Positions 1 through 20,238 of a DNA stretch of 44,628 nt are shown in pieces (the first letter of the stretch is position 1; every line of letters starts with the position of its first letter). The stretch lies in the UHGV virus genome UHGV-0097092. One strand, written 5' to 3'. The notes under the pieces are model-generated. The model worked only from the letters and a program-made list of their open reading frames with translations. It was not told the DNA's origin and made no database searches. The stretch is from a virus. A program made the translations under genes and the position numbers.

Positions 1-20
1 ATAGTGATGACTATCGTCGT

Positions 21-359
21 ATGATTCTTGGTGAGTTCCCTGGTATTAGGGAGGCTGTTCTTGAATCAGATATGCCGAAGACAATGCGCTTTTCGATGCC
101 TGATGGTAGTGAATGGACAATGCCATTACGAGTGATAGCCCGGCATCATGCGCAGCACCACGCCAAAAAACATGGCGTCACGACATTAGAATGGTTGAAA
201 TCGCACACTATTCCACTCTTCACTGCAGATCACAATGCTATCGTTGAGTGGGCAAAAACAATTCCGTGGGAGCATGTCGCTGAATATGCTCACATGCTAA
301 AACCGCCGAAAGACAGGCACGAAATTAGCTGGCTGACAGCCGAAAAAATCATTGAATGA
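21..359 (+). CDS. hypothetical protein; frame is open to window start so the gene may extend upstream
   Basis: 112-aa ORF converging on the humD-like gene; shared hairpin terminator downstream; no recognised domain. Confidence 0.4.
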   Translation: MILGEFPGIREAVLESDMPKTMRFSMPDGSEWTMPLRVIARHHAQHHAKKHGVTTLEWLKSHTIPLFTADHNAIVEWAKTIPWEHVAEYAHMLKPPKDRHEISWLTAEKIIE

Positions 360-365
360 TATCAA

Positions 366-398
366 CAAAAAGCCCGCCAGGTCTGGCGGGCTTCTTTA
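366..398. terminator. bidirectional rho-independent terminator between convergent genes
   Basis: GC stem cccgcc/ggcggg (373-390) flanked by A-run upstream and T-rich run downstream. Confidence 0.5.
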
Positions 399-404
399 TG
401 CGCC

Positions 405-794
405 TTAAATCACAGGTCTATAATCAAACTCCCCACTTCGGGCATCATTAATGACATGAGTGATCACACCAAACACAGCATTACTGCCCGTGCATCCATC
501 GTCATCTACTGGTAACGCCTCTTTCTTCCCGGTGCTTAAATCCTCCAGGTGCTGGCGCGGATACTTCCTGTATCTCTTTATGCGATATTCACCCTCCATA
601 GCGCATATAAGCAGTGAACCATCAACCGGAGTAAGTGAGGAATCAACCACCAGCAAAGCACCTTGCAATATTCCCTCACGGTGATGGCTGTCTGCCGCCC
701 GCATGAAGTAGGTCGCGGAAGGATGTCTGATTAGTTGCTGATCAAGAGAAATGCGGCTCTCTGCATAATCCGCCGCAGGAGAAGGGAAGCCCAT
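405..794 (-). CDS. humD: UmuD'-like S24 peptidase lacking the N-terminal tail (P1 HumD-like)
   Basis: 129 aa starting M-GFPSPAADY, which matches UmuD just after its self-cleavage site; Ser and Lys of the catalytic dyad context retained; LexA box 19 bp upstream. Confidence 0.7.
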   Translation of the reverse strand: MGFPSPAADYAESRISLDQQLIRHPSATYFMRAADSHHREGILQGALLVVDSSLTPVDGSLLICAMEGEYRIKRYRKYPRQHLEDLSTGKKEALPVDDDGCTGSNAVFGVITHVINDARSGEFDYRPVI

Positions 795-812
795 AGCGTT
801 TTACCTCAATGA

Positions 813-832
813 TACTGTTTATTCATACAGTA
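813..832. promoter_or_regulatory. LexA (SOS) box TACTGTTTATTCATACAGTA
   Basis: CTGT-N8-ACAG palindrome, close to consensus, immediately upstream of the humD-like start. Confidence 0.6.
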
Positions 833-917
833 TACATTGAAAAGGAATAGTTTGTGAAAGCGGGGGTTGTAGGCGCGCCACGCTGGGGGCTAATCACATT
901 TCTCCCCCATCTTGCCG

Positions 918-1169
918 TTATTTTTTTGGTGCATCCTCGTTCTGATACACCGGATCGCTCCCTTTTGGCAACTGGAGGCTTAACTGCCGGTAGTGCCGTA
1001 GCCGTTCCATGAAATAGGCGCGCAGATTCTCTGGTTGCTCGCGGGCTACCTGTTCAGCTATGACAGGTATGTTCAATCGCTCTTTGTACGCCACACCGCT
1101 GGCAGCCAGATCAACGTTAACCTTATCCCGTTCTTCCTGACTTTTAGCTGCAATATTCCAGTCGCTCAT
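918..1169 (-). CDS. hot: DNA polymerase III theta-subunit homologue (HolE-like; P1 Hot-like)
   Basis: 83 aa; segment [43 protein letters not shown] closely parallels recalled E. coli HolE. Confidence 0.65.
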
Positions 1170-1171
1170 AT

Positions 1172-1444
1172 TTAAGGCTCACATTTCCAGATGGTATTCT
1201 GAACACCAGAACCGGGCGCTAGATGAGGGTTAGCGTTCGCGCTATGCTGATATACTGCTTTAGACTTCCCATATTGCTGACAGGCTTTATCTGCGGTTTT
1301 TTGCAGGCTATCCAGGCCATACCAACCATCTGACTGTATGCTTACCTTTTCACCGTCGTTGTATTGCACCATTGCACACCCAGATATAGCCAGTATCGCG
1401 CCGACAATAACGCTTTTCCATAAAACTCTATGCAACATATACAA
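1172..1444 (-). CDS. small lipoprotein
   Basis: N-terminal signal peptide with lipobox-like LAISGC. Confidence 0.5.
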
Positions 1445-1472
1445 AAATCCCCTCTGTGAATTGAGGGGATTT
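1441..1472 (-). terminator. rho-independent terminator (minus strand)
   Basis: stem atcccctc/gaggggat with 8-nt loop followed by T-run on the minus strand; lies between the 258-aa gene and the lipoprotein gene. Confidence 0.45.
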
Positions 1473-1483
1473 TAGCATGGTGA

Positions 1484-2260
1484 TCAGATATCGGCCTTAT
1501 TCGGAATTTTATCAGCCACCAGCGGCAATAAAGCCTTCGCCATTTCATGAACCAACATGGCATCAATGACGCCTAGCGTATGGCCCGGCTTAATCTTTAA
1601 TGCGGCCTCAAGATAGCCTCTTTCCAGAGTGGTTTTTACGCTTTTCTTGGGCGATTGTTGGGAACTATCCGGAAAATCCGGATGGTTGCCAGCCTCGTAA
1701 GCTACCCGCAGCCAGTGCATGAATGTTTCAGTGGACACACAACCACAGTCCACATCGATTTTCCCGCGTTGCTGTTCCAGCCATTGCCCAAAATCCAACC
1801 TGTAAGTCTTACTTTCAAGTTCATCACCATTGAACTCGACTTTCTGCGACGCTATGAGAGCTGATTCGTATTGTTCGCGAGTGACAACTGACAGGTATTC
1901 ATCGCTATCAAGGTCACCAATTGGAAGCTCAATCTCACAACAAAAATTGCGCCCAAAGAACGTGTCTTTTTTGTGGTCTGAGCCAAAAGCAAAAGTCGCG
2001 CATGGCGCCATTAAATTGGCACTGAGCAGGCGACAATCGATCATACCATCAGGCCACCCGCCGCACTTAGGCAGCTCCTTCACTAACAAGTCGATAAGCT
2101 TCATTTTTTTATCATCTTTGCAAGCCGCCAAAGCCATTTGGGCAAGTGCCAATACTTCATCTGCCGTATATCCAGCACCGTGACCATACATTTCGATACG
2201 GGAAATAATATCTGAAATACGCTCTTTAGTGATTCTTGTCATAGTTTTATTTCCTTGCAT
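1484..2260 (-). CDS. hypothetical protein (258 aa; start may be at 2242)
   Basis: long ORF, Cys-rich middle region, no recognised domain. Confidence 0.5.
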   Translation of the reverse strand: MQGNKTMTRITKERISDIISRIEMYGHGAGYTADEVLALAQMALAACKDDKKMKLIDLLVKELPKCGGWPDGMIDCRLLSANLMAPCATFAFGSDHKKDTFFGRNFCCEIELPIGDLDSDEYLSVVTREQYESALIASQKVEFNGDELESKTYRLDFGQWLEQQRGKIDVDCGCVSTETFMHWLRVAYEAGNHPDFPDSSQQSPKKSVKTTLERGYLEAALKIKPGHTLGVIDAMLVHEMAKALLPLVADKIPNKADI

Positions 2261-2448
2261 GGTTCGCCTTTACGGCAAACAGCTACACGGTCATTTCTTA
2301 CATTAACCACAGTCACCGTTCCGTCATCGCATTGAATAACGATGAAAGGGTGTTCATTCTCTTTTGTGCAATGTTGCTGTTCTCCAGCCATTGCAGCCGG
2401 AGGATCAAATAGCGCCAGAACAAATGCCAACCTTAAAAAATGCTTCAT
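2239..2448 (-). CDS. small exported protein
   Basis: 69 aa with N-terminal signal peptide (LAFVLALFDPPAAMA). Confidence 0.4.
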   Translation of the reverse strand: MKHFLRLAFVLALFDPPAAMAGEQQHCTKENEHPFIVIQCDDGTVTVVNVRNDRVAVCRKGEPCKEIKL

Positions 2449-2455
2449 TTGGCCT

Positions 2456-2508
2456 TATCCGTTATCAAAATTGGAATATCCGTTATCACGAGCGTGATAT
2501 CCGTTATG
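2456..2508. promoter_or_regulatory. three direct ATCCGTTAT repeats at about 21-bp spacing plus palindrome TATCACGAGCGTGATA (2484-2499)
   Basis: repeats read directly; positioned just upstream of the minus-strand gene starting at 2448. Confidence 0.35.
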
Positions 2509-2527
2509 AAGTGGGGAATAAGACCAC

Positions 2528-2704
2528 TTACCAATACCCTCCGCCTGACTCAAAGTTGGCGATAAGCCAGGCTGCGAAAAGAGTAACCCCGCTCCAAAAA
2601 CCACACCCCACCGTACCCCATTTAACACCACCAGCTAATAAAATAAATAAACCGCAAAGGCATACAAACAAAAAAGTAATCCAAAATTTCTTTCTGTTTT
2701 TCAT
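2528..2704 (-). CDS. small membrane protein (58 aa), my own ORF call
   Basis: MKNRKKFWITFLFVCLCGLFILLAGG...; GGAG 9 nt upstream; start overlaps upstream stop as TAATG. Confidence 0.35.
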   Translation of the reverse strand: MKNRKKFWITFLFVCLCGLFILLAGGVKWGTVGCGFWSGVTLFAAWLIANFESGGGYW

Positions 2705-2997
2705 TATGGTTGACTCCAGTTATCTTCAATAACAATACTTAACCTCTGAAGCCATTCTGCTAATTTCAGCATGGCTTCTCTTTCGCTTAAACCACGCGGA
2801 AAATCATCAAGCGAAATTGTTGGCTTGAAGTTCCCCGAATTATCCATTTCAACGGTCAGATTTTGCTCCAGCACGGTATTCCTTACGCGGCTATTGTGCC
2901 GAAGCAAATATACTGAGCGTGATTTATTGGTTTTGTGGTCGAGCTGATATTCGGTAAGTATCATCTGGCTTCCACCATGATTATTACCGCGCCACAT
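2704..2997 (-). CDS. hypothetical protein (97 aa)
   Basis: ORF with GGAG 7 nt upstream of the ATG at 2997; no recognised domain. Confidence 0.45.
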   Translation of the reverse strand: MWRGNNHGGSQMILTEYQLDHKTNKSRSVYLLRHNSRVRNTVLEQNLTVEMDNSGNFKPTISLDDFPRGLSEREAMLKLAEWLQRLSIVIEDNWSQP

Positions 2998-3009
2998 AAT
3001 TACTCCGTG

Positions 3010-3414
3010 TTAATAAGAGAAATAGACCGTTGCAACACTGTTATATTGGTCGAACGAAATAGCATTTACTTCATAGCTGGTGGGCAGCTTCTTACCAAGA
3101 ATGTAGCCAGGCCATGAGTTCCACGGAATTTCTGTTCGGTCGTCGTCTTGCCACATTACGCAACCAAGAGAGCCAACCATTTCACCATATCGCTTGCCAC
3201 AAGTAACAAAGCCGATATTCGGCTTTTCTTGTGTTACTGATACCGTGGTGGTATTGGCAGATGCATTGATTGCAGTACGTTGCTCATGCTCGCTGGCGGA
3301 TGAGGCGCTAATTACAGCGGTTGCCGCAGCTCCCGCAGCAATAACCGATGCATGAGATAAATGACAGGCAGATAACATTGCCAGAAAAATAATATTTCTT
3401 TGAAATTTAGCCAT
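3010..3414 (-). CDS. exported protein of unknown function
   Basis: 134 aa with signal peptide and Ala-rich region. Confidence 0.5.
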   Translation of the reverse strand: MAKFQRNIIFLAMLSACHLSHASVIAAGAAATAVISASSASEHEQRTAINASANTTTVSVTQEKPNIGFVTCGKRYGEMVGSLGCVMWQDDDRTEIPWNSWPGYILGKKLPTSYEVNAISFDQYNSVATVYFSY

Positions 3415-3688
3415 TGATATTTACCTTTATCGCGTAAACCTTTACCGGTTTATCGCCGAAGTGGGGATGCGTGATTGTCTTGATTTCATATCCGTCATAC
3501 GGGACGTCTATTCTGCGGCTGGAATCATCGCGCTTCGGATATCCCTTTGTGATAATCAGGCGGTCATACTCGCGGAACAGAATTCGCTTATTCCAGTAGT
3601 CATTACACAAGCGATACTCTTCCGTTTTCTCTCCAGACTTCATCTGGTCGAAATATTCACCGTTAACTGCCAGTTGAAGGTTAGCCAC
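3407..3688 (-). CDS. ASCH-domain protein (GTG start at 3688)
   Basis: GEKTEEYR matches the ASCH GxKTxExR signature; AGGAGG 6 nt upstream of GTG. Confidence 0.55.
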   Translation of the reverse strand: MANLQLAVNGEYFDQMKSGEKTEEYRLCNDYWNKRILFREYDRLIITKGYPKRDDSSRRIDVPYDGYEIKTITHPHFGDKPVKVYAIKVNING

Positions 3689-4508
3689 GGTTAACCTCCT
3701 GCGGCGGTTCTGGTAGCGGCATCCAGTGTGACGGTTTCCACGACGCCCCAGGAATGATCCACCCATCATTAGCGTCAGGATGCCCCGGGATGTAAGTCGC
3801 CCATTTCATTCGCCAGTCACCTTTCCTATCAAACTCCTTGGCAACAAGAACGGCTGTTTTGGTATCCGGCATTCGCTCACTACAGCTTATCCAACCATCC
3901 GGAGTTACCGGATAGTTGCGCATTGCGACCTTTAATGCCTCATAGAAGCAACCTTTCAGATTGTTGAACTGACGCCCATTAAGAGGACCGTGTTCAGTAA
4001 GCATGTTGCGTAATTTCCATGCCGCGTCGTTTACTTCGTTGGATGACAGGGGAGGCAACTTGTAAGTTTGGCTTACAGGTTCGGCACCATGAAGCATGGC
4101 GCCGCTCCGCTCTATGCCATCCAGCGCGATTCGCAGTGCCTGAATTGTGGTAGAGCTATCGTTTGGGGCTATTCCATATCGCTCGAATACAGCTAAATGG
4201 TTGCGCATAATCTCAGGCGTAAGCTCTTTGTAAGCATAAGCAAGAGGCTCTGATGCATTATCCGGCACAACCGACGCAGGCGCGGCAGCATAAACAGGAA
4301 TAACGTCCGCTTGCTCTTTATTGCTTTCATCCGTTAAAGCCCAGAATAATTTCCCGGCCGGATGTTTGAAAATATAAGCAACTGGATCTGCTTCCAGCGA
4401 TGCCAGTGCAATTTCATAAGCACGGCGCTCAATATTGTCTCGAACGTCCAAGCTGCCTATGCGCTCTTTGATTTCTTTAATCAGTTCTTTGTCGGTTAAA
4501 GTGGTCAT
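3681..4508 (-). CDS. DUF551-containing phage protein
   Basis: C-terminal W...SCSERMPD...WMPLPEPP pattern typical of DUF551. Confidence 0.6.
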   Translation of the reverse strand: MTTLTDKELIKEIKERIGSLDVRDNIERRAYEIALASLEADPVAYIFKHPAGKLFWALTDESNKEQADVIPVYAAAPASVVPDNASEPLAYAYKELTPEIMRNHLAVFERYGIAPNDSSTTIQALRIALDGIERSGAMLHGAEPVSQTYKLPPLSSNEVNDAAWKLRNMLTEHGPLNGRQFNNLKGCFYEALKVAMRNYPVTPDGWISCSERMPDTKTAVLVAKEFDRKGDWRMKWATYIPGHPDANDGWIIPGASWKPSHWMPLPEPPQEVNRG

Positions 4509-4714
4509 TTGTTAATCCTCAAAACTTTATGCCCGGGCGCAAAAGCACGCGTTTTGTCTTTGCTTATTCGCCAGCCATCCTTGCGCGCCTCTTTTGCACA
4601 GCCAGCCCATGACGTACCTATATACTCACCGAAGTCTGGCGACTTATATTTGCCATCTGTACACTGGAGGCAATCACAATAGAGATGCATGGTGTAACTT
4701 GCAGCGATAGCCAT
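4505..4714 (-). CDS. small Cys-rich hypothetical protein (69 aa)
   Basis: ATG at 4714 with AGGAG upstream; MAIAASYTMHLYCDCLQC... Confidence 0.45.
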   Translation of the reverse strand: MAIAASYTMHLYCDCLQCTDGKYKSPDFGEYIGTSWAGCAKEARKDGWRISKDKTRAFAPGHKVLRINK

Positions 4715-4715
4715 A

Positions 4716-4904
4716 TCACTCTCCTTTAGTGCGCAAGTGGTTTTTCCAGCGGTTTTGCGCCGCGCTGGGCTTTTTGCAAAAACCACAATCCATCATCCCG
4801 TAATATTTCATCAACCCCATCCGTCGGTTGCTGAGTCTCACCCACTGCCAGACGCCAGGAGCGTTTCTACGAACTAACAGAATCTTTGCTTTACGGTTTT
4901 TCAT
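4716..4904 (-). CDS. small basic protein (62 aa, begins MKNRKAK)
   Basis: ORF; start region duplicated about 175 bp upstream. Confidence 0.3.
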   Translation of the reverse strand: MKNRKAKILLVRRNAPGVWQWVRLSNRRMGLMKYYGMMDCGFCKKPSAAQNRWKNHLRTKGE

Positions 4905-5077
4905 CTTACAGCGTACCCTTTCTTCCGCCTGTTCTGTGACGCAGTAGGCTTACGCTTTGCGGCAAAAGCCACCTGACCAAATGGATGGAGTACCGCTATC
5001 TTATGGTTGCTAATAACCAGCTCCACCACACGCACAGGTCGCTGTAAAAAAAGTCGTTTTGCCTTACGGTTTTTCAT
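4901..5077 (-). CDS. small basic protein paralogue (58 aa, begins MKNRKAK), my own ORF call
   Basis: hand-translated; stop overlaps the next start as ATGA; shares the ttacggtttttcatc start region with 4716..4904. Confidence 0.3.
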   Translation of the reverse strand: MKNRKAKRLFLQRPVRVVELVISNHKIAVLHPFGQVAFAAKRKPTASQNRRKKGYAVR

Positions 5078-5249
5078 CGCTTTGCTCTCCTGCGTCTCTT
5101 TGCTGCTCGTCGTGCCGCTGCAATACCGGTATGGCGGCGCTTTGGTGCCGGGATGATGTTGTCAGCCATCAGGACATGTGGCTTTGCAATTAGCGCAGAA
5201 GCCCAAAAACGAGTCGGGTACGGTAACAAGCCGATACATGCCACACGCA

Positions 5250-5744
5250 CTACTCACCTCCGTTGATGCGAATGCCTGTTGCAATGCTGTTTATGATGCT
5301 GTCAGTGCATGGAGTAGAAAGCTGGGCATCTCCAGCAATTTTCATGACCTCAACATCTGCATATCGAATACCGAGGTGTATCAGACCTGCTATGCCTGAC
5401 TTAAGCCGAGCATTTTCCATAAATAGAACCTTTGCCATCTGTTTTTCTGCTTCAAGCTCAACGCGCAGCTTCCCTACCGTTAGCGCAATATCCTCGTTCT
5501 CCTGGTCGCGGAGTTTGATGTATTGCTGGTTTTTTTCCCGTTCATCCAGTAGTGCCAAAGCAACCTTTGGATTAAAGGCAGCAATAAATTCAGCGTTGTT
5601 TTTCAGAACGTGTTGCGCAATGGCCTGACTACTTAGTCGGACCTCATAACCACGTGCGCCACGGTGTGGTTTATATGAGTCCCAGTCTCCCCACGTTGCT
5701 TTCTCTGCCGCCTCACGCAGTGCCTGGTAATTAATTTCGCTCAC
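5250..5744 (-). CDS. Ead/Ea22-like protein
   Basis: N-terminus MSEINYQALREAAEKAT... typical of Ea22-like prophage proteins. Confidence 0.55.
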   Translation of the reverse strand: MSEINYQALREAAEKATWGDWDSYKPHRGARGYEVRLSSQAIAQHVLKNNAEFIAAFNPKVALALLDEREKNQQYIKLRDQENEDIALTVGKLRVELEAEKQMAKVLFMENARLKSGIAGLIHLGIRYADVEVMKIAGDAQLSTPCTDSIINSIATGIRINGGE

Positions 5745-6358
5745 TGGTTGCCTCCTTTGCGAAGCTGTTCAGCAATACTTACGCATATCTCTGCGCCTCT
5801 AATCAGCCCCGGAACGTTCTTGTTTGGCCCAACTTCACCATCAACAAAATCAATCATCGCGTTACGAGCCATATCCACCCCCTGCGCCCGCACTTCCGCC
5901 AGGAAAGCGTCGGTAGCTGGCGTTTCGCTGTGGTGCAGGGCATCATTAATAATCATCGCAGCAACTCCGGCCTGCCCTGCATCCGTTACCGACACATGCT
6001 CAAGAGTTACGGCCATTGCGTGTTTCAGTCCGGCGTTCTCTGCCACCAGCGCCGCGATATTAGTTTCAAGCTCTGCAATACGGCACATAGCATCAATATT
6101 TGAGTCCTCCTGACGTTTAATTTCATCCAGTAGTGACAACGCAACTTTTGGTGGGATAGCCGCGATATAACGGGCATTAGCACCAGCATTCCTTTGTCCA
6201 TCAATGCCAGGCCAGTCAATAAAGTATCCGCAATGCCTACCTTCAGACGTGCGCGCAGGATAAATGCCGTTATGACCCGGCAAAATATATGCTACCCATT
6301 CATCTTGCGTTGCCTGTTCCGCCGCCTCGCGCAGTTCTTGATAGTTAATTTTGCTCAC
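5741..6358 (-). CDS. Ead/Ea22-like protein
   Basis: N-terminus MSKINYQELREAAEQAT; C-terminal module [17 protein letters not shown]...QLRKGGNQ shared with the gene at 8934..9650. Confidence 0.6.
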   Translation of the reverse strand: MSKINYQELREAAEQATQDEWVAYILPGHNGIYPARTSEGRHCGYFIDWPGIDGQRNAGANARYIAAIPPKVALSLLDEIKRQEDSNIDAMCRIAELETNIAALVAENAGLKHAMAVTLEHVSVTDAGQAGVAAMIINDALHHSETPATDAFLAEVRAQGVDMARNAMIDFVDGEVGPNKNVPGLIRGAEICVSIAEQLRKGGNQ

Positions 6359-6644
6359 TGGTTGCCTCCGCTTCCCACGTTTTCAGACTTTCACCACAGA
6401 ATGGGCAAAATGAAACTCGAATAGGCGATTTAGAAAATTCACCAGACCGCAGCATGATCAGGTCCTGTGAATGAATTAATTCATGGTTATAGACTTTGTA
6501 TTTCAGCAGGCCTTTTCGCGTCGTGTATTCAGCATCCTGCTCCAGAGATTGTGCCAGCGCCGCGCACGGTTCTATTTTTCTGCCATTAATCAAACAAGTG
6601 GAGATTCTGCACTTTGCAGCTCCGTCACCGTTACCTTGACTCAT
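6345..6644 (-). CDS. small zinc-ribbon-like protein
   Basis: 99 aa with CxxxC ... CPFCG motifs. Confidence 0.45.
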   Translation of the reverse strand: MSQGNGDGAAKCRISTCLINGRKIEPCAALAQSLEQDAEYTTRKGLLKYKVYNHELIHSQDLIMLRSGEFSKSPIRVSFCPFCGESLKTWEAEATSEQN

Positions 6645-6657
6645 TGCGTTGTTCCCA

Positions 6658-7653
6658 TCAGTTATTAAACGTGATCACTCCGCGCTCGATGGCGAAGTCG
6701 AAAAGCTGGTTAGCGACTACATAAAGGCGTATGCCATGTGCTTTTTCCCATGCCCGGACATCGTGTTCTGCGCTTCTGGCGCAGTCATCGCAAAGAGGAA
6801 CAGCCCAGCGGTCGTGTTCGTTTAACGAGCGGGCGCGGTACATGAACGGGTGGTTAACTTTGCCACCGCATCCGATGCACGGACGAGAAACCACAAAGCG
6901 GAGATAAGCCGGGCTTTTTCCGAGTAAGGTTTTTGGACGGCGCATATATAGGAGGCCAGAATCCTCATCTACAGACAGGTTGACGATCTGCTCTGCGGTT
7001 ATGTCCACCAGCTCGCGCGTACTGCGCTCCCAGGTGATATCTGATTCTTTCAGCGTACCGGTAGGGATTTCAGTTTTTGGCTGACAAAATGCAATGCGCC
7101 CGGCTTCATCTGGCAGCTCATCTTTCAGATTCCGGCGAATGGCCCAAAAAGTGAGTTCAACCATGCTCAGATCGCGTTCTGGCGGTAGTTTTAACTCGCT
7201 CGCAGCCCAGTTCATAACCCAGTTGGCGCGATTCAGGGATAACTGGTCGTCCAGCTTGCTGTACCCCTTCATCATGTATTCCGCATCATGCTTCCAGCAC
7301 AGGCGAACGGCAGAACCGTTATAGAAGTGAGTGGTTAGCTGGTGGCTACAATCGCGCTTATCATGCGCCTGGCAATCGTGAATGTTGGTGCTAACCCAGT
7401 GAACGATAGAATCCTCGCCACCTAACGCATTAAATACGCGCTCACTTTGAAAAAAGGGTGTCAGTGACTGGTTGGCAACCAGGGAATAATTCAGATCCAC
7501 GACGCCATCAGGGGTGTTTTCAGCCTGTTCGCGCGGCAATGGGGAGATAAGAAAACGGCGGCCTGCGCCGATGTAATTGCTGGTGGGCTTATCTACAGGA
7601 AAGACAGCCACACCAGTTTCATTTACGACATATGGGGTGATTATTGCACTCAT
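6658..7653 (-). CDS. DUF968-family protein with Cys-rich C-terminal region
   Basis: 331 aa; C-terminal RPCIGCGG...PLCDDCARSAEHD resembles the DUF968 HNH-like region. Confidence 0.55.
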   Translation of the reverse strand: MSAIITPYVVNETGVAVFPVDKPTSNYIGAGRRFLISPLPREQAENTPDGVVDLNYSLVANQSLTPFFQSERVFNALGGEDSIVHWVSTNIHDCQAHDKRDCSHQLTTHFYNGSAVRLCWKHDAEYMMKGYSKLDDQLSLNRANWVMNWAASELKLPPERDLSMVELTFWAIRRNLKDELPDEAGRIAFCQPKTEIPTGTLKESDITWERSTRELVDITAEQIVNLSVDEDSGLLYMRRPKTLLGKSPAYLRFVVSRPCIGCGGKVNHPFMYRARSLNEHDRWAVPLCDDCARSAEHDVRAWEKAHGIRLYVVANQLFDFAIERGVITFNN

Positions 7654-7694
7654 AATGCATACCGACTCTGTTTTGTTCCGAGCGGTAAAATAAT

Positions 7695-7727
7695 ATGTTA
7701 GAAAATTAAAATCAACAATCTAACACG
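7695..7727. promoter_or_regulatory. promoter-operator-like palindromic motif, copy A
   Basis: ATGTTAGAAAATTAAAATCAACAATCTAACACG; TTAGA/TCTAA arms around an AT-rich, -10-like core. Confidence 0.45.
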
Positions 7728-7757
7728 ATTTTGAGCGCGTAAACGATGTAACCCGGC

Positions 7758-8441
7758 TTACGGTTGCCCTCCCTTCACCTGCATTAGCGTCAGGTTTCCG
7801 CAAAATACAGCACCAGTATCGATATAATGCTGGTTCCAGAATGCTTTTGGGCTTTTAGCCGGGGTGTGTCCGAAGATAAATCGATCTGCACCTGTAATTT
7901 CTTCACCGATGCCATCTATCGAATCACTAACACGGTCGCGCGACCAGATGACATTGAAAAGCGGCACAGCCTTACCGAACTGATACTCTCTATCCGGATA
8001 GTCAGCATGAGCAATGACAATAGTCTCCTGCCCGGTGTTCAGCTCAATGATATGAGGCAATTGCCTTACCAGCTCCACCAGCGCCCTGGCTAAAACTTCC
8101 TTATCACTATCCAGCATAAAGAACCACTGGCCGCCATTCATTAGCCAGTTATTCACGTTTCCAGCTGGGCTTAACGCATCGATCATCAACCTCTCATGGT
8201 TACCCATGACAGCCCGGAACCAGGGCATTTGCAATAACTCCAGGCATTCGACATTTTCAGTGCCGCGATCGATAAGGTCGCCGACTGATATCAGTAAATC
8301 CTGCGCCGGGTCAAAATCCACACGATGGAGTTCATTCATAAGCAGGGTGTAGCAACCGTGCAAATCACCAACAACCCATATGTTTCTGTATCCTGAACCA
8401 TCAATACGGCTATATAACGCCTGGTCGTTAACGGTGATCAT
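7758..8441 (-). CDS. Ser/Thr protein phosphatase, lambda PPase / PrpA-PrpB type
   Basis: metallophosphatase motifs GDLHGC, GDLIDRG, GNHE. Confidence 0.8.
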
Positions 8442-8665
8442 TCTGCAACATCCTCCAAATCAGCAACCGCGTCCATCACATCAGAACCGCGAATAACTTC
8501 AAAAGCGCGGCAGGCCATTTCAAACACCTGTTGTTCTTGCGGATGCGGTGACTCCCAATACTTAAAACCAGGTCGATGCTCGTAACCCATCATGGAATAA
8601 AAATCGCCAGCAAGTTCAATCGCGGCATCAACAAGTTCGCGATTTGTCATCGTCTGTTCTGTCAT
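8438..8665 (-). CDS. hypothetical protein (75 aa)
   Basis: ORF translationally coupled to neighbours; acidic. Confidence 0.45.
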
Positions 8666-8937
8666 TTGGTTTTCTCCTGTCTGAACATCACTATCATCAG
8701 GTCGCCTTTTGTCGCTATCCTCGCTGTTGTGCCTGGTTCAATGCGGCTAAGTTCAAATGCGTCATAGAACGCCTCCAACGCTTTCTGGCGTTTTTCCTGT
8801 TTGCGGCGCTTTCCCCACTGCTTTAGAAAAACAGAGGCCGCCCACTTCCCCGCACTGAACATGATGTAAAACCAACCGAGAAGTGCCAGACCGGTATTTA
8901 GGAGCGTATCGATCGTTATTGTCGTGTCGATATTCAC
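8662..8937 (-). CDS. small membrane protein
   Basis: 91 aa with a hydrophobic helix (LLGWFYIMFSAG) followed by a basic stretch. Confidence 0.45.
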   Translation of the reverse strand: MNIDTTITIDTLLNTGLALLGWFYIMFSAGKWAASVFLKQWGKRRKQEKRQKALEAFYDAFELSRIEPGTTARIATKGDLMIVMFRQEKTK

Positions 8938-9650
8938 TGGTTGCCTCCTTTGCGAAGCTGGTCGGCGAACAAACGTACACCAGACGCTTCACTGCGTAGA
9001 AACTTAACGGCATAATCAAAACCACCTCGTTCTGCGTCGTCTGCTGCGTTGTCGAGGTTATCTGCGTACATCTCTACCCCCTGCGCACGCACTTCAGCCA
9101 GGAAAGCGTCGGTGGCTGGGGTTTCAACACGGATGCTGTCGCGCAAGATGAAAAATGCATTGAGCATTCCTGTCTCTGGCACTTCATCCTGATGCTTCTC
9201 ATACGCATCAAGAGCCTTCATCATCTCAGCTCCGAATGGTTGAGGGTGCACAGACTTCAGCTCCGCATTCTCCGCCGCCAGCACCACGCGTTCGCTCTCC
9301 AGTTCTGCAATGCGCTGTTTTGCGGCATCAAGTTCAATCGATAATTTTTCCAACTGCTCTTTATGCTTCTTGTATTCCTGATATGCGTGCCAAGACTGAC
9401 CTTTGCGCACACTATCCGTGATATCAGTAATCTGTTCTGGTGTTAGCGTGGTCAGTGGCTGTGCTGGGAAAATCAGCACTTTGCCGGAATCCCAATCAAA
9501 ACCAGCGTGAATTGACTGAACCTCAACTGATGGTGTTGAACCGATGCGACCAGGCGAATGAACAACGATCGTTACATCCATATCGCGACGATGGCTGTGG
9601 TTGTTGGACAAAATACGATTCACCAACTCAGAAAATTTGGAAAATTTCAT
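8934..9650 (-). CDS. Ead/Ea22-like protein (start taken at ATG 9650)
   Basis: shares the C-terminal module and the 3' junction sequence cactggttgcctcctttgcgaagctg with 5741..6358; ATGA overlap with the upstream gene. Confidence 0.55.
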
Positions 9651-10009
9651 GCTGATTCCCTTTGCTCTTCCTGGATAATGTTGTTGCAATCTTTCACGCA
9701 CTCGTTGCAGATGAAGACGTTGTCCCCGGCAATTAACTTTTTAACGGTGTGCTGGGATTTGTTGCAGAAGCTGCAATAAAGCGTTGGACTGGTTGATACG
9801 GATGGTGCGCCAGATGTCAGCCGCGCGATGTCGTTCTTGCGACGCAATATCACACGGCTGAACTCAACCAGCTTCTCCGGGGATATATCCTCCTCCGTAG
9901 CGAGCGTTTCTAATCGTTCGAGTATGTGGAAGGCTTTTTCCTGGGTAATCCTGGGTAATTCAGCGTTACGCTCTGCCAGTTGTGCGGGCGTTAAACCTTC
10001 AGACTTCAT
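9647..10009 (-). CDS. protein with C-terminal ClpX-type C4 zinc-finger domain
   Basis: [39 protein letters not shown] closely parallels the ClpX N-terminal zinc-binding domain. Confidence 0.6.
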
Positions 10010-10316
10010 GCACTCTCCTTTCGAAATAAACGTACTGATTAATCATGCCCAGGGGCATTTCGAGTTTTTCCGCGATCTCACGGCGGGGAACGCCGCATTG
10101 ATGAAGTTGCCGCGCCAGCTCTATATCGCTCTGCCGATATTTGGCTGACTGGTGAAAGTCACCTTTCAGAATCATTCTGATCCCCAGTTCCCGCGCTTTA
10201 GTCCTGACAGCATCTCCGGTACGCCCGATCAGCCTCCCAATACTCTCGACCGTCATAGTTCCGGCGCACTGGCGGAGTATCATGATTTCTGCCCTTCCCC
10301 ATCCCCGCCAGCTCAC
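9999..10316 (-). CDS. small DNA-binding (helix-turn-helix-like) protein
   Basis: 105 aa; HTH-like segment [26 protein letters not shown]. Confidence 0.45.
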
Positions 10317-10936
10317 GCCGACATCCTCTGAGACATAAACTCCACAAAACGAACTGCATCTTCAGAAACAACGCCGCATGACTTCAGATAATTCATTGCG
10401 TCATTAGGTAGCGGATTAGTTGGTTCGGCATTTGCCAGGGATTGAGATAAACGCGTGATTAATTTGACCATTCTCCGCTGTCGGAGGTTGTATCCTTCGG
10501 CTAAAGACAGGTAACTGGAAAGGGTATTGCTTAGGCGAGCGCGAAGCTGATCCGTGCCGTGACATTCAATAGCAACATCACGTAACGCATCGACCAGTTC
10601 GCGGTAAATATGCGCTGCCATTCTGCAATCTGTGTCAGATGGCGCTTCATAAATTACCGTCAGCTCCAGTTTTTCAGCCAGGGCGTGTTCTGCTCGTGCT
10701 CCTGCGGACGCTTCCCAGCCCTTAAGCAGATAGATAGCATCAGCAGAACGCACCATTGCCAGGCAAATATCCATGTATTCACTCTGACAAAGGCCACCAG
10801 GTAACACCGCTGGATTCAGAACGATATGCCCTTCAGCCGTCAGCTCACTCGCCTTCGCATTAAACGCCGCGCGGTTGTAATCTGGATAACCAGTCATCGG
10901 ACCCGCGATGTAAATTTTCAAAACACGTTTCACCAT
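10313..10936 (-). CDS. DUF4406 / nucleoside 2-deoxyribosyltransferase-like protein
   Basis: start MVKRVLKIYIAGPMTGYPDYN; IAGPMTG motif typical of the NDT-like fold; extra C-terminal region. Confidence 0.5.
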   Translation of the reverse strand: MVKRVLKIYIAGPMTGYPDYNRAAFNAKASELTAEGHIVLNPAVLPGGLCQSEYMDICLAMVRSADAIYLLKGWEASAGARAEHALAEKLELTVIYEAPSDTDCRMAAHIYRELVDALRDVAIECHGTDQLRARLSNTLSSYLSLAEGYNLRQRRMVKLITRLSQSLANAEPTNPLPNDAMNYLKSCGVVSEDAVRFVEFMSQRMSA

Positions 10937-11091
10937 CAAAATTTCCCCAGCATCGTGACGCAAAACATAAGCACTGCAAAAAGCTCAATACCAAGCTCAA
11001 GTAGCGCCAACGCGCCGAAAAACAGCACATAAAACAGGCCGATCTCATTCACAGGTGGCTGGTGGATCGCACTTAAGGCTATAAGCATCAT
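10936..11091 (-). CDS. small hydrophobic membrane protein (51 aa), first gene of the leftward array; my own ORF call
   Basis: GGAGG upstream; MMLIALSAIHQPPVNEIGLFYVLFFGALALLELGIELFAVLMFCVTMLGKF; stop overlaps next start as TGATG. Confidence 0.35.
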   Translation of the reverse strand: MMLIALSAIHQPPVNEIGLFYVLFFGALALLELGIELFAVLMFCVTMLGKF

Positions 11092-11130
11092 GTCCTCCAA
11101 ACAGTAAACAGCGACTGATATTAATGTTTT

Positions 11131-11163
11131 ATGTTAGAAAATCAATTTTGAATATCTAACAAA
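11131..11163. promoter_or_regulatory. promoter-operator-like palindromic motif, copy B (divergent region)
   Basis: ATGTTAGAAAATCAATTTTGAATATCTAACAAA between the leftward array and the ref-like gene. Confidence 0.45.
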
Positions 11164-11209
11164 TATGATCAATCATAAAAAAATCGCTGATAAGTAAGAG
11201 GCAGCCAAC

Positions 11210-11788
11210 ATGCAGAGACAGAGTTATTGGGAGAAACAGAGACAAAAAGCCATGCAAAAACTGGCTGATCCGGAATGGCGGGAAGAGCAAAGGGCAAAAC
11301 GTCTTCAGCAGGCTCAACGCCAGCAGCAACGCGCAAGGGAAAAAGCCGCATCGCCTGAATATCGTCAAAAGAAACTTGAAAAAGTGAGGCAAAGTGAACA
11401 GCGCAGAAGAGAGAGGGCGGCGTCAGCCCTCCCCAAAAAAACGCGCCCGTCACGCGGATTAAAAGGGAGATCACTCACAGCAGAAGAGCGCCGGATACAG
11501 GACGCTATAGGCAAACTCCCCTGTATTGCCTGCCATCTTCACGGGAAGCATAGCCCTGTCGTATCTCTCCACCACATATTTGGCAGAACGGCTAAAGATG
11601 CCCATAAATACGTTCTCCCTTTGTGTAAATGGCACCACCAGCACGCAGCGCCAGCAGAGATCCGCGAACAATATCCCTGGTTGGTTCCTGTTCATGCTGA
11701 TGGAAAAATAGGCGGGAAAGCAGATTTTATACGGCACAATGCCGAAGAGATGACGCTCTATCAGACGGTGCAAGAAATGGTGAATTAA
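11210..11788 (+). CDS. ref: Ref-like HNH-type recombination enhancement protein
   Basis: basic Gln/Arg-rich N-terminal region plus C-terminal Cys/His core (LPCIACHLHG...LPLCKWHH), matching the P1 Ref architecture. Confidence 0.55.
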   Translation: MQRQSYWEKQRQKAMQKLADPEWREEQRAKRLQQAQRQQQRAREKAASPEYRQKKLEKVRQSEQRRRERAASALPKKTRPSRGLKGRSLTAEERRIQDAIGKLPCIACHLHGKHSPVVSLHHIFGRTAKDAHKYVLPLCKWHHQHAAPAEIREQYPWLVPVHADGKIGGKADFIRHNAEEMTLYQTVQEMVN

Positions 11789-11812
11789 TTTTCTAACATT
11801 TTATGTTGAGTT
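11789..11812. promoter_or_regulatory. degenerate reverse copy of the operator-like motif, copy C
   Basis: TTTTCTAACATTTTATGTTGAG immediately after the ref-like stop. Confidence 0.3.
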
Positions 11813-11916
11813 TGAAATTTACTGATTGTACATTTTGATTAGATTGGTTCACCGCTCGACGCAACGAGACAAATCCTCAAGGATTTCGTATGATTGCCAA
11901 TGTCATAGTTATGGCA

Positions 11917-11975
11917 GCGCAATACAGGTGGCTAAAAGCCCCCGTTGACTCACGGTGTTCCAACCTGTATTGCGC
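11917..11975. repeat. perfect 13-bp inverted repeat GCGCAATACAGGT / ACCTGTATTGCGC with a 33-nt spacer
   Basis: read directly; embedded in a possible 35-aa ORF (11891 onward). Confidence 0.5.
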
Positions 11976-12119
11976 CGCCACCAGACCGTGGAACAGTCTG
12001 TGACGGCTTCGAAAGCAAGGAGTCACTATGAACAATTACAAACTTTTCCCATCACTCACCGTCTACTCACGCAATAACCTGCGTTCTTTGCTCCCATCAA
12101 AACTGGAGGGAGTATCAAA

Positions 12120-12287
12120 ATGACCGTTCGCTACCTGAATTATCAAATCCAGAACATCACTGGCGGTTGCTATGACTGGTTTGTCACTCTCGGAAAAGAA
12201 GTGATTACAGGGAAACTGGATGAAGTGAAAGCTAAGGCGTTGGCTTATGCCTGTAAACAATCCATGAAAATGAAAAGAAAAAAATAA
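12120..12287 (+). CDS. small hypothetical protein (55 aa), my own ORF call
   Basis: GGAGGG 7 nt upstream of ATG; MTVRYLNYQIQNITGGCYDWFVTLGKEVITGKLDEVKAKALAYACKQSMKMKRKK. Confidence 0.35.
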   Translation: MTVRYLNYQIQNITGGCYDWFVTLGKEVITGKLDEVKAKALAYACKQSMKMKRKK

Positions 12288-12344
12288 CAATGGGAACAAT
12301 CCGCCCCACTCCGCTATAAGGTGGGGCGGCATAATTAATACTGG

Positions 12345-12737
12345 TTAAAACTCACCTGCACGCTGTTTTTCAAGCACAGATTTAACATTTGGCGCTTTAC
12401 CCTCAAAAGAATGGAAAGTGCCACATTTTTCTGTCTTCACCTCGCGCAGAGCTTCGCCATCGGCATTCTGCCATTGATGGGATAATGTCATATCACCGCG
12501 AGAAGGAACATCAAGCGAGTACAGCGTATAAGTGCCTCCCATCTCTGCATATTCCTGGAACACATAACTCATTACGTCAGATTCAGTTTTACGATGTGCG
12601 TTATCGACCTTATTCCCGTTCAGAAATATAGCGTTTGGATAGATTTTTATATCAAACTGACCGCATTTCACTTGCAGATTCCCAGCGTCTGCCAGCAAAG
12701 GAAAAGCAGCCAATAAAGCAATAGCCAATCTTTTCAA
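12345..12737 (-). CDS. exported protein of unknown function
   Basis: 130 aa with signal peptide MKRLAIALLAAFPLLADA. Confidence 0.5.
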   Translation of the reverse strand: MKRLAIALLAAFPLLADAGNLQVKCGQFDIKIYPNAIFLNGNKVDNAHRKTESDVMSYVFQEYAEMGGTYTLYSLDVPSRGDMTLSHQWQNADGEALREVKTEKCGTFHSFEGKAPNVKSVLEKQRAGEF

Positions 12738-20194: not shown

Positions 20195-20238
20195 CCAATT
20201 GTGTTAGATAATTGAATAGAATTTTCTAACACAATTGG
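20195..20238. promoter_or_regulatory. promoter-operator-like palindrome, copy D
   Basis: CCAATTGTGTTAGA-16 bp-TCTAACACAATTGG; spacer holds GATAAT and TAGAAT hexamers; 7 bp upstream of rdgC. Confidence 0.5.

Follow-up and report, generated by a model that had tools for sequence, protein, structure and literature searches.

Three accessory genes in a phage-plasmid carry similar beginnings or ends next to a recurring short sequence. This raises the question of whether they are mosaics built by exchanging modules at conserved linkers, as the original prediction held, or duplicates that diverged in place. We analysed a window of 44,628 nt, meaning the whole stretch of DNA; it comes from pTB423, an E. 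coli plasmid of the phage D6 type. We consider it likely that the three genes, here called A, B and C, are mosaics in which variable cassettes lie between DNA-conserved blocks and are swapped there by homologous recombination, and that the junction between genes probably couples their translation.

A D6-type locus with Ea22-like slots

The genes had been assigned to a P1-like backbone, one on which lambdoid ea22 genes are not normally found, and this assignment did not hold. Window positions 15000-39999 are 96.7% identical to D6 over 98% of this 25-kb stretch, which identifies the backbone as D6-type, and a megablast of the same positions against P1 (Punavirus) records gave no match. Within positions 5000-10000, just 60% is alignable to D6 (at 92%), and canonical P1 matches ppp only (85%). 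The exact pTB423 arrangement was found in a single PLSDB record. Genes A, B and C are part of a long, tightly packed set of accessory genes on the minus strand, which extends from about 10963 down to 1485. The accessory operon of D6 between ref and hot (NC_050154, orf88-orf107) shares its backbone with the window at 96.7% identity, and both have the gene order DUF4406, ClpX-zf/Ea22 slot, DUF4752, ppp, DUF968, orf99 and Ea22 slot. D6 carries two ead/Ea22-like genes in this operon, one of them in the identical slot after the orf99-like gene; unlike the window, it has other Ea22-like alleles (orf100 and orf92) and extra small genes. Between one and four Ea22-like genes regularly occupy these slots in D6 and its relatives: each of the seven sister loci examined has 1-4 annotated copies. 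The syntenic ppp-hot region of canonical P1 is devoid of ead/Ea22-like genes.

The genes and their neighbours are as follows; the reading frames first noted for A, B and C agree with the RefSeq coding sequences of pTB423.

Gene A: 5250-5744, minus strand; 164 aa, Ead/Ea22-like (WP_104209153.1)
Gene B: 5741-6358, minus strand; 205 aa, Ead/Ea22-like (WP_052896617.1)
Gene C: 8934-9650, minus strand; 238 aa, a chimera and not a member of Pfam Ead_Ea22
orf99-like small gene: 6345-6644, minus strand; phrog_4030, homologous to D6 orf99
DUF4752 gene: 8662-8937, minus strand; not an Ea22 gene, starts at the GTG of junction 3
DUF968/HNH protein gene: 6658-7653, between two groups of Ea22-like genes
Ref RecA-dependent nuclease gene: 11211-11789
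Open reading frame: 5074-5250, with a GTG start that overlaps the TAG stop of gene A

Membership of PF13935 (Ead_Ea22) was defined as an HMM score at or above the gathering threshold of 27 bits. Genes A (110 bits, E 1.8e-31, profile positions 1-139) and B (88 bits, E 1.1e-24) exceed it. Gene C had no match to this profile even at E<=10 with either start codon. Hence, the description of all three genes as Ead/Ea22-like paralogues stands for A and B and fails for C, which matches phrog_6026 (residues 1-113, 1e-54) and the heterogeneous phrog_368 (aa 17-238); the latter also covers B over its full length. Gene A is the closest of the three to lambda Ea22. In BLASTP against the lambda-type Ea22 of HK630, A showed 52% identity over 101 aa (residues 1-101, E 2e-27), B matched by its head alone (residues 1-21, E 3e-6), and C gave no similarity. 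Similarity to lambda-type Ea22 across the N-terminal and coiled-coil half is thus limited to A. A single-sequence structure model of B, which is of low confidence and unreliable (pLDDT 44.8), places long helices at residues 88-121.

Shared blocks and the junction

The proteins of A and B align from end to end at 37% identity (E 4e-17), and the head MS[EK]INYQ.LREAAE is part of this alignment. B and C share the T block and the QLRKGGNQ tail (E 1e-17), and these comparisons bear out the proposed sharing of terminal modules; A and C share coiled-coil similarity only (E 0.006). Gene A consists of the head, an N-variable module, a central M block and a C-terminal module ending in ..GIRINGGE-stop. 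Gene B has the head, a different N-variable module, a coiled coil, the T block, a variable C cassette and the tail ..QLRKGGNQ-stop. In gene C, the N-terminal domain (aa 1-113) is of the phrog_6026 type and is followed by an Ea22-type coiled coil, the T block, a variable C cassette and an RKGGNQ tail.

The DNA shared within the window is limited to short blocks. These are the head (MS[EK]I[ND]YQ.LREAAE), the central M block (LLDERE.NQQYIK...VGKLRVELE), the T block, and the tail with the junction (CAGCTTCGCAAAGGAGGCAACCAGTGA). Head plus junction spans 101 nt at 73%, the central block 30 nt at 90% between A and B, the T block 57 nt at 89% between B and C, and tail plus junction 33 nt at 94% between B and C. 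From the T block to the tail, some 100 nt of B and C cannot be aligned (about 30-40% identity). Thus, B and C have the flanks of a cassette in common and not the C-terminal cassette itself.

Head block of A: 5697-5744, minus strand; first 16 codons, MSEINYQALREAAEKA; this head is common to lambda Ea22 and 70 unique Ea22-head genes
Head block of B: 6311-6358, minus strand; first 16 codons, MSKINYQELREAAEQA
Central M block of A: 5445-5557, minus strand; LLDEREKNQQYIKLRDQENEDIALTVGKLRVELEAE, also in lambda-type Ea22
T block of B: 5870-5929, minus strand; 5' boundary of the C-terminal cassette, where a crossover maps
T block of C: 9069-9125, minus strand; 89% to the T block of B
Variable C-terminal cassette of B: 5774-5869, minus strand; ..DMARNAMIDFVDGEVGPNKNVPGLIRGAEICVSI..
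Variable C-terminal cassette of C: 8967-9068, minus strand; one of four alternatives at this position in sister plasmids
Tail of A: 5250-5275, minus strand; ..GIRINGGE-stop, a variant of the second common Ea22 tail-linker (..GIRIKGE-stop, then ATG)
Junction 1: 5741-5755, minus strand; GGAGGCAACCAGTGA, with the GGNQ-stop of B, the Shine-Dalgarno GGAGG and the GTG start of A overlapping TGA
Junction 2: 6355-6369, minus strand; the same 15-mer, its GTG being the start of B
Junction 3: 8934-8948, minus strand; the same 15-mer, with the GGNQ-stop of C and the GTG start of the DUF4752 gene

The recurrence of the junction was confirmed exactly. The 14-mer CACTGGTTGCCTCC, which reads GGAGGCAACCAGTG(A) on the coding strand, occurs three times in the window (5742-5755, 6356-6369 and 8935-8948; expected 0.01), placing the first bases of the GTG codons at 5744, 6358 and 8937 on the minus strand. 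No further copy was found in the window with one mismatch allowed, and three matches were seen in 0 of 100 shuffles. In this design, the ribosome-binding site lies within the last codons of the upstream gene and the GTG start overlaps the TGA stop. At junction 2, the upstream orf99-like gene uses another frame (..EATSEQN-stop) with its stop 10 nt further on, and its last seven codons come from the linker and the Ea22 head read in that other frame. Sister loci sampled without selecting for the motif also show GGAGGCAGCCAGTGA, GGAGTCATCCAGTGA, GGAGTCATCCAATGA and others at this position; the junction is a family of related sequences rather than an invariant site.

The same junction is widespread in phages. 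The junction region was found in 461 phage records, and the exact 15-mer in at least 120 IMG/VR viral contigs; these contigs were chosen by the 15-mer, so its 100% conservation among them is by construction, and some singleton matches may be due to chance in a very large database. In these contigs, the upstream frame through the 15-mer encodes RKGGNQ-stop in 87 cases, EATSEQ[DN]-stop in 30 and EATSE-stop in 9. At least 10 multi-member upstream families and at least 7 downstream families meet at the junction, and where the flanks are unrelated, their nucleotide identity is down to about 25% within 10 nt of it. Hence, short conserved DNA marks the module borders and the sequence outside is unrelated. 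Modules also mix inside the genes: the 70 unique Ea22-head genes comprise 10 N types and 25 C types in 49 observed combinations, and ten pairs of N types have at least two C types in common, so that all four combinations occur.

Crossovers in sister plasmids and competing explanations

The same linkers enclose alternative modules in sister D6-like plasmids, where the cassettes of the window recur in different combinations and slots. The C-type gene of these plasmids has four different C-terminal cassettes, one of which is of the gene B type (in NZ_CP085065 and NZ_CP104667), and the C-terminal half of A is fused to three different N-modules. The DNA at window positions 5741-5926 is 94.6% identical to 5379-5564 of sister locus L123 and to 5161-5346 of L125. 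Gene A itself resides in a different slot in L123 (95.6%), as does its C-terminal half in L125 and L127 (96.7-97.4%).

Two crossovers could be mapped with three-way informative sites. The C-type gene of L123 matches window C alone as far as the T block, B alone across the cassette, and C alone again beyond the junction. The gene at 1693-2139 of L124 agrees solely with D6 orf100 up to nt 150 (66 informative sites) and solely with window A from nt 240 onward (144 sites); the 90-nt zone between them, which has almost no informative differences, is the M block. Both crossovers therefore fall inside conserved blocks. The M block of A is also the most widely shared segment of the gene (66-69 BLAST matches, compared with 9-21 in its flanks) and a recurrent crossover zone, with match ends recurring at 5442-5450 and 5557. 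Altogether, the comparison with related phage-plasmids by which the prediction was to be checked revealed the breakpoints, and the sister-plasmid cassettes, the two three-way alignments and the multi-family junctions support shuffling by homologous recombination at conserved linkers.

We propose that each gene was put together from variable cassettes between short DNA-conserved blocks. The junction would play two roles. With the Shine-Dalgarno sequence of the next gene in the last codons of the upstream one and a stop/start overlap (GTGA), any gene placed downstream would probably be translated by coupling, as may be the case for the DUF4752 gene, probably coupled to C via junction 3. Together with the other blocks, the junction would also offer 30-110 nt of homology for crossover by general homologous recombination, through RecA or phage recombinases, an enzymology that we infer. 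Partners could be paralogues on one replicon, as well as lambdoid prophages and other phage-plasmids. Such exchange would replace sub-genic cassettes, move whole genes between slots and change copy number, and all three outcomes are evident at this locus in the comparative data. On the other hand, the conservation of the blocks may be owed just to protein and ribosome-binding-site function, with recombination being incidental.

The prevailing alternative model of phage mosaicism (summarised in PMC3233612) is illegitimate recombination at random positions. Only joints at gene or domain borders would then survive, because intact genes are selected for, and the short shared sequences would play no part. 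Some breakpoints in the operon, for example 8417/8425 and 9949-9971, may lie outside repeated linkers, which would fit this model. However, the mapped crossovers lie in 50-90 nt stretches of near-identity between the parents, and a single 15-nt junction, with about 25% identity just outside, links many unrelated families. Moreover, the junction is used in three reading frames, a finding that selection on protein ends would not readily account for by itself. We thus regard this model as very unlikely here.

Rated lower still is an exchange driven by a local nuclease (DUF968/HNH or Ref), through double-strand breaks and homing-like gene conversion from paralogous copies. Both candidate genes are present, the DUF968 gene lies between the two groups of Ea22-like genes, and Ref of P1 enhances RecA-dependent recombination. 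However, no target site, intein- or intron-like arrangement or conversion asymmetry was seen, and lambdoid prophages without these neighbours have the same junctions and mosaics. The least probable explanation is that tandem or dispersed duplicates diverged in place without module exchange, their ends being kept by purifying selection on the termini and the ribosome-binding site: A and B are indeed adjacent and alignable throughout, and the tails hold the downstream Shine-Dalgarno as an obvious constraint, but near-identical cassettes (94-97% in nucleotides) occupy different genes and slots in sister plasmids, parental identity switches abruptly inside conserved blocks, ten N-type pairs show all four N/C combinations, and C has an unrelated N-terminal domain. 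Barring assembly chimeras among the sister-plasmid sequences, the crossovers in L123 and L124 already contradict it.

Relation to known systems

Exchange at conserved linkers has clear precedents. A mosaic organisation and a pro-lysogenic role have been described for Ea22 (PMC10834534), and lambda ea22 is non-essential (PMC10695390). With the Ea22 of lambda and its Shiga-toxin phage variants (PMC10834534; PF13935 / IPR025153), gene A shares the head MSEIN.QALREAAE, the central LLDERERNQQYIK..VGKLRVELE block, the coiled coil and a ..GIRIKGE-type tail. Common features also include a three-part architecture with an exchangeable C-terminal domain and the status of an early, non-essential accessory gene, published as mosaic. 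Unlike lambda ea22, the window genes belong to a D6-type phage-plasmid, not to a lambdoid exo-xis region, and number three instead of one. Their C-terminal domains show no relation to the solved domain of lambda Ea22; searches of B and C against PDB sequences found no relative of solved structure, this dimeric alpha-beta domain included. Gene C entirely lacks the Ead_Ea22 N-terminal region, and the start of lambda ea22 itself lacks the GGAGGCAACCAGTGA junction. On the basis of homology to lambda Ea22, early expression and a non-essential role are probable for these proteins. The weakest of our inferences is that they might be coiled-coil oligomers with exchangeable end domains, which shift the lysis-lysogeny decision or act on host factors.

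The boundary-sequence model of modular phage evolution (Susskind and Botstein 1978; Clark et al. 2001 on HK620), as cited in PMC3233612, likewise involves short conserved border sequences with unrelated flanks, at which modules are swapped by homologous recombination. Compared with the model as cited there, the window linkers are coding, the gene tail holding the ribosome-binding site and overlapping the next start, and some are intragenic, so that sub-genic cassettes are exchanged besides whole genes. The PeSLs of T4-type phages are intergenic units of a promoter and a stem-loop terminator (PMC2839356). As here, these repeats of up to about 100 nt border non-essential genes in hyperplastic regions, provide the gene that follows with expression signals and are places where crossovers lead to insertion, deletion or replacement. 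Unlike PeSLs, the three window junctions showed no minus-strand promoter-like site and no terminator-like hairpin, and the autonomy that they would confer is translational, not transcriptional.

Ea22 mosaicism and boundary-sequence recombination are both already published, and the locus is a well-documented instance of them, with no new kind of system and no new function. As a case of cassette exchange at conserved linkers, both within genes and of whole genes, it is clean and well resolved. We consider it unlikely that enterobacterial temperate phages and phage-plasmids maintain the blocks as universal plug-and-play adaptors, beyond their function as protein or ribosome-binding-site segments, whereby two coding tail-linkers (..RKGGNQ-stop/GTG and ..GIRIKGE-stop/ATG) would guarantee translational coupling to any downstream gene in any of three upstream frames and, with the intragenic blocks, would form a combinatorial Ea22 diversification system driven by an arms race with host or competing-phage targets. 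Similar gene ends do not imply the same protein, and the transfer of an 'ead/Ea22-like' annotation is therefore unreliable. One early-accessory gene pool connects D6-type phage-plasmids, some P1-type plasmids and lambdoid/Stx prophages, and its coding tail-linkers are ready-made candidate translational-coupling adaptors that could be used in phage engineering.

Shared blocks and the junction

The open reading frames of genes A, B and C lie at the coordinates originally given and coincide with RefSeq coding sequences, and the following features, all within the window, are used throughout:

5250-5744, minus strand: gene A
5741-6358, minus strand: gene B
8934-9650, minus strand: gene C
5445-5557: M block, the central LLDERE..VGKLRVELE segment of gene A
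5870-5929 and 9069-9125: T block, a conserved segment of B and C; the C-terminal cassettes lie between it and the tail
5742-5755, 6356-6369 and 8935-8948: junction, a repeat spanning the end of one gene and the start of the next

Ea22 proteins have three parts, with a coiled coil between a short N-terminus and a C-terminal domain that varies, and have been described as mosaic and pro-lysogenic (PMC10834534). In lambda, ea22 is non-essential (PMC10695390). The original prediction regarded all three genes as Ead/Ea22-like paralogues with common terminal modules. Family membership holds for A and B, which match Pfam Ead_Ea22 at 110 and 88 bits (threshold 27), but not for C, which gives no match to this family even at E<=10. 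Instead, residues 1-113 of C correspond to phrog_6026 (1e-54) and the remainder to phrog_368, a heterogeneous group that takes in A and B as well. The common terminal modules were borne out by protein alignment. A and B are 37% identical over their full length (E 4e-17), and B and C have the coiled coil, the T-block segment and QLRKGGNQ in common (E 1e-17); similarity between A and C is confined to the coiled coil. At the DNA level, the pieces common to these genes inside the window are short (33, 57, 30 and 101 nt), and B and C are unrelated over the ~100 nt from T block to tail. The genes have the cassette borders in common, not the cassettes themselves. Sequence searches of the PDB with B and C returned no meaningful matches and hence no relative of solved structure. 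A single-sequence AlphaFold2 model of B was unreliable (pLDDT 44.8); being too poor for a fold search, it served as a rough helix map only.

The predicted recurrence of a junction sequence was also confirmed, as the window contains three exact copies of the 14-mer against 0.01 expected. The coding-strand sequence of the junction is GGAGGCAACCAGTGA. Translated in the frame of B or C, it gives ..G-G-N-Q-stop, and its GGAGG Shine-Dalgarno sequence lies six bases 5' of a GTG in overlap with the TGA stop codon. Gene A begins at this GTG at one copy, and an unrelated DUF4752 gene does so at another. The remaining copy has the orf99-like gene upstream, which reads these bases in a different frame (..EATSEQN*) and terminates 10 nt later, inside the head of B. 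A promoter and terminator scan found neither element at the junctions. Such a layout is the classic signature of translational coupling, which we infer for these genes.

Crossovers in D6-like plasmids

Comparison of D6 with six D6-like plasmids at the same accessory operon revealed common anchors in all loci (DUF4406, DNA-binding protein, DUF4752, phosphatase and DUF968 genes). The Ea22-like genes vary among these loci, occupying three slots with one to four annotated copies. In the protein comparison, the C-type gene had four different C-terminal cassettes, and three different N-terminal modules were attached to the C-terminal half of gene A. In NZ_CP085065 (locus L123) and NZ_CP104667 (L125), the C-type gene bears the cassette of window gene B at 94.6% nucleotide identity. 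Moreover, three plasmids harbor A-type DNA in another slot, adjoining the ClpX-zinc-finger gene (95.6-97.4% identity): the whole gene in L123, and its C-terminal half in L125 and NZ_CP021537.1 (L127).

Two three-way alignments located the crossovers. The C-type gene of L123 agrees with window C alone in its 5' part up to the T block, with window B alone through the cassette, and again with C alone from the junction on. In locus L124, gene 1693-2139 matches D6 orf100 alone until nt 150 (66 informative sites) and window A alone from nt 240 on (144 sites); the intervening 90 nt are the M block, which is almost devoid of informative differences. Recurrent BLAST match ends (5253, 5442-5450, 5557, 5741-5777, 5926, 6350-6369 and 8940-8949) likewise correspond to gene junctions and internal blocks. 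Hence, the related phage-plasmids carry recombined cassettes with crossovers inside conserved blocks, in line with the linker-guided shuffling that had been proposed. An integron, a DGR or another site-specific cassette system was dismissed, because the annotation of the surrounding 15 kb includes neither an integrase nor a reverse transcriptase, and because the crossovers are in stretches of ordinary homology.

The first ~17 residues of the ClpX-zinc-finger gene 9647-10009 (window 9950-10009) recur in sister plasmids, where they open whichever gene follows the DNA-binding-protein gene, be it Ea22-like or a coiled coil plus cassette, and recurrent breakpoints fall at 9949-9971. This segment looks like another conserved head serving as a linker. 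Ea22-like alleles in D6 (6549-7217), L124 (6733-7434) and L128 (7304-8005) end in ..LLRKGQSCLRPNFEGER* instead of ..LRKGGNQ*, which resembles a frame-altered tail-linker running on to the next ATGA junction. Finally, a 60-aa product in NZ_CP021537.1 (3584-3766), also present in the IMG/VR locus L042, begins with a B-type Ea22 head and continues out of frame; this remnant is what the array retains of a cassette that decayed or was frameshifted.

Spread of the linkers among phages

The exact junction 15-mer occurs in at least 120 IMG/VR contigs, and the matches listed provided 129 usable instances; its 100% conservation among them is circular, since they were selected on the exact 15-mer, and some singleton matches may be due to chance. 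The sister loci, which were not selected in this way, show a family of related junction sequences, such as GGAGGCAGCCAGTGA and GGAGTCATCCAGTGA. Across the 129 instances, the upstream ORF uses the 15-mer in three frames, RKGGNQ* (87), EATSEQ[DN]* (30) and EATSE* (9). At the junction, at least 10 upstream families with more than one member are joined to at least seven downstream families; among the latter are Ea22-head genes, a methyltransferase-like gene, the DUF4752 gene and several small ORFs. Within 10 nt of the junction, unrelated flanks fall to ~25% nucleotide identity. In a set of 70 unique Ea22-head genes, 49 combinations of 10 N-variable with 25 C-terminal types occur, and ten pairs of N types each have two or more C types in common. 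The 101-nt junction region was found in 461 phage records, mainly of Stx, lambda-like and P22-like phages.

A second widespread tail-linker, GGCATTCGCATCAAAGGAGAGTGA[G/T]ATG (..GIRIKGE* followed by ATG), has 38 unique instances in IMG/VR loci, with about ten or more different gene families downstream of it. The same ..GIRIKGE* tail ends lambda-type Ea22, and the tail of gene A (window 5250-5275) is a variant, ..GIRINGGE*, with an overlapping GTG.

In the classical Susskind-Botstein model, recombination takes place at short conserved boundary sequences; PMC3233612 cites it together with supporting evidence from HK620. T4-type phages provide a functional analogue in their PeSL cassettes (PMC2839356). 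The locus is a well-resolved case of already known mosaicism and boundary-sequence recombination. The literature searched deals with Ea22 mosaicism in general, with the boundary-sequence model and with PeSLs, and yielded no earlier description of the junction motif and no account of Ea22-like genes on phage-plasmids. Two details were not found described there: coding-tail linkers bearing the ribosome-binding site of the next gene, and the use of three frames.

The D6-type element and its accessory operon

Window 5000-10000 is 100% identical to the E. coli plasmid pTB423 (NZ_CP034790.1; 91,762 bp, circular, non-mobilizable). Outside the region of the three genes, window 15000-39999 (25 kb) shows 96.7% identity to phage D6 across 98% of its length, and P1 records gave no match to it at megablast sensitivity. 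On these grounds, the element is a phage-plasmid of the D6 type rather than, strictly speaking, a P1 backbone. The original prediction of a P1-like backbone normally lacking ea22 does not stand, as D6 has two ead/Ea22-like genes in the operon, one in the same slot behind an orf99-like gene, and all sister plasmids compared carry such genes. Canonical P1 has no Ea22-like homologue in the syntenic ppp-hot region (tblastn and annotation; 16 kb). A P1-type plasmid from infant faeces, MH422554, contains A- and B-like DNA in separate pieces (96.5% to window 5000-6350 by megablast), and its encoded proteins are 68% identical to A and 60% to B by tblastn. Ea22-like genes are thus part of the usual cargo of D6-type elements, which exchange them with P1-type elements and lambdoid prophages. 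In MH422554.1, a Punavirus P1 variant, the related DNA (locus 4254-5272) is unannotated, adjoins RecT and EaA genes and replaces the P1 pmgT-pmgV region.

Genes A, B and C belong to a tightly packed run of ~25 minus-strand genes, from ~10963 down to 1485, most neighbours overlapping by 1-14 nt. The run ends at one feature:

1473-1444, minus strand: strong terminator-like hairpin (11-bp stem, then a T-rich tail), directly after the last operon gene

It is the sole strong minus-strand hairpin of this kind in the promoter and terminator scan; an Rfam scan of window 1-12500 gave no matches. Two minus-strand ORFs of 58 aa are absent from the pTB423 gene table: 4901-5077 (phrog_1380), a paralogue of the adjoining annotated 4716-4904, and 5074-5250. 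Homologues are annotated in CP056796 and NZ_CP021537, and the MKNRKAK.. gene appears locally duplicated in window 4716-5250.

The P1 C1 operator consensus does not occur in the window. Three perfect GTTAGA-N16-TCTAAC palindromes (7697-7724, 11133-11160 and 20203-20230; 0.01 expected) are candidates for repressor operators in the D6-type element. Two of them occupy the only sizeable non-coding gaps of the operon, one ahead of the first operon gene on the side of ref, and the other between the phosphatase and DUF968 genes. A DUF968/HNH-type gene (6658-7653) lies inside the mosaic region and a gene for a Ref-family RecA-dependent nuclease (11211-11789) adjoins it; it is conceivable that they stimulate the exchanges.
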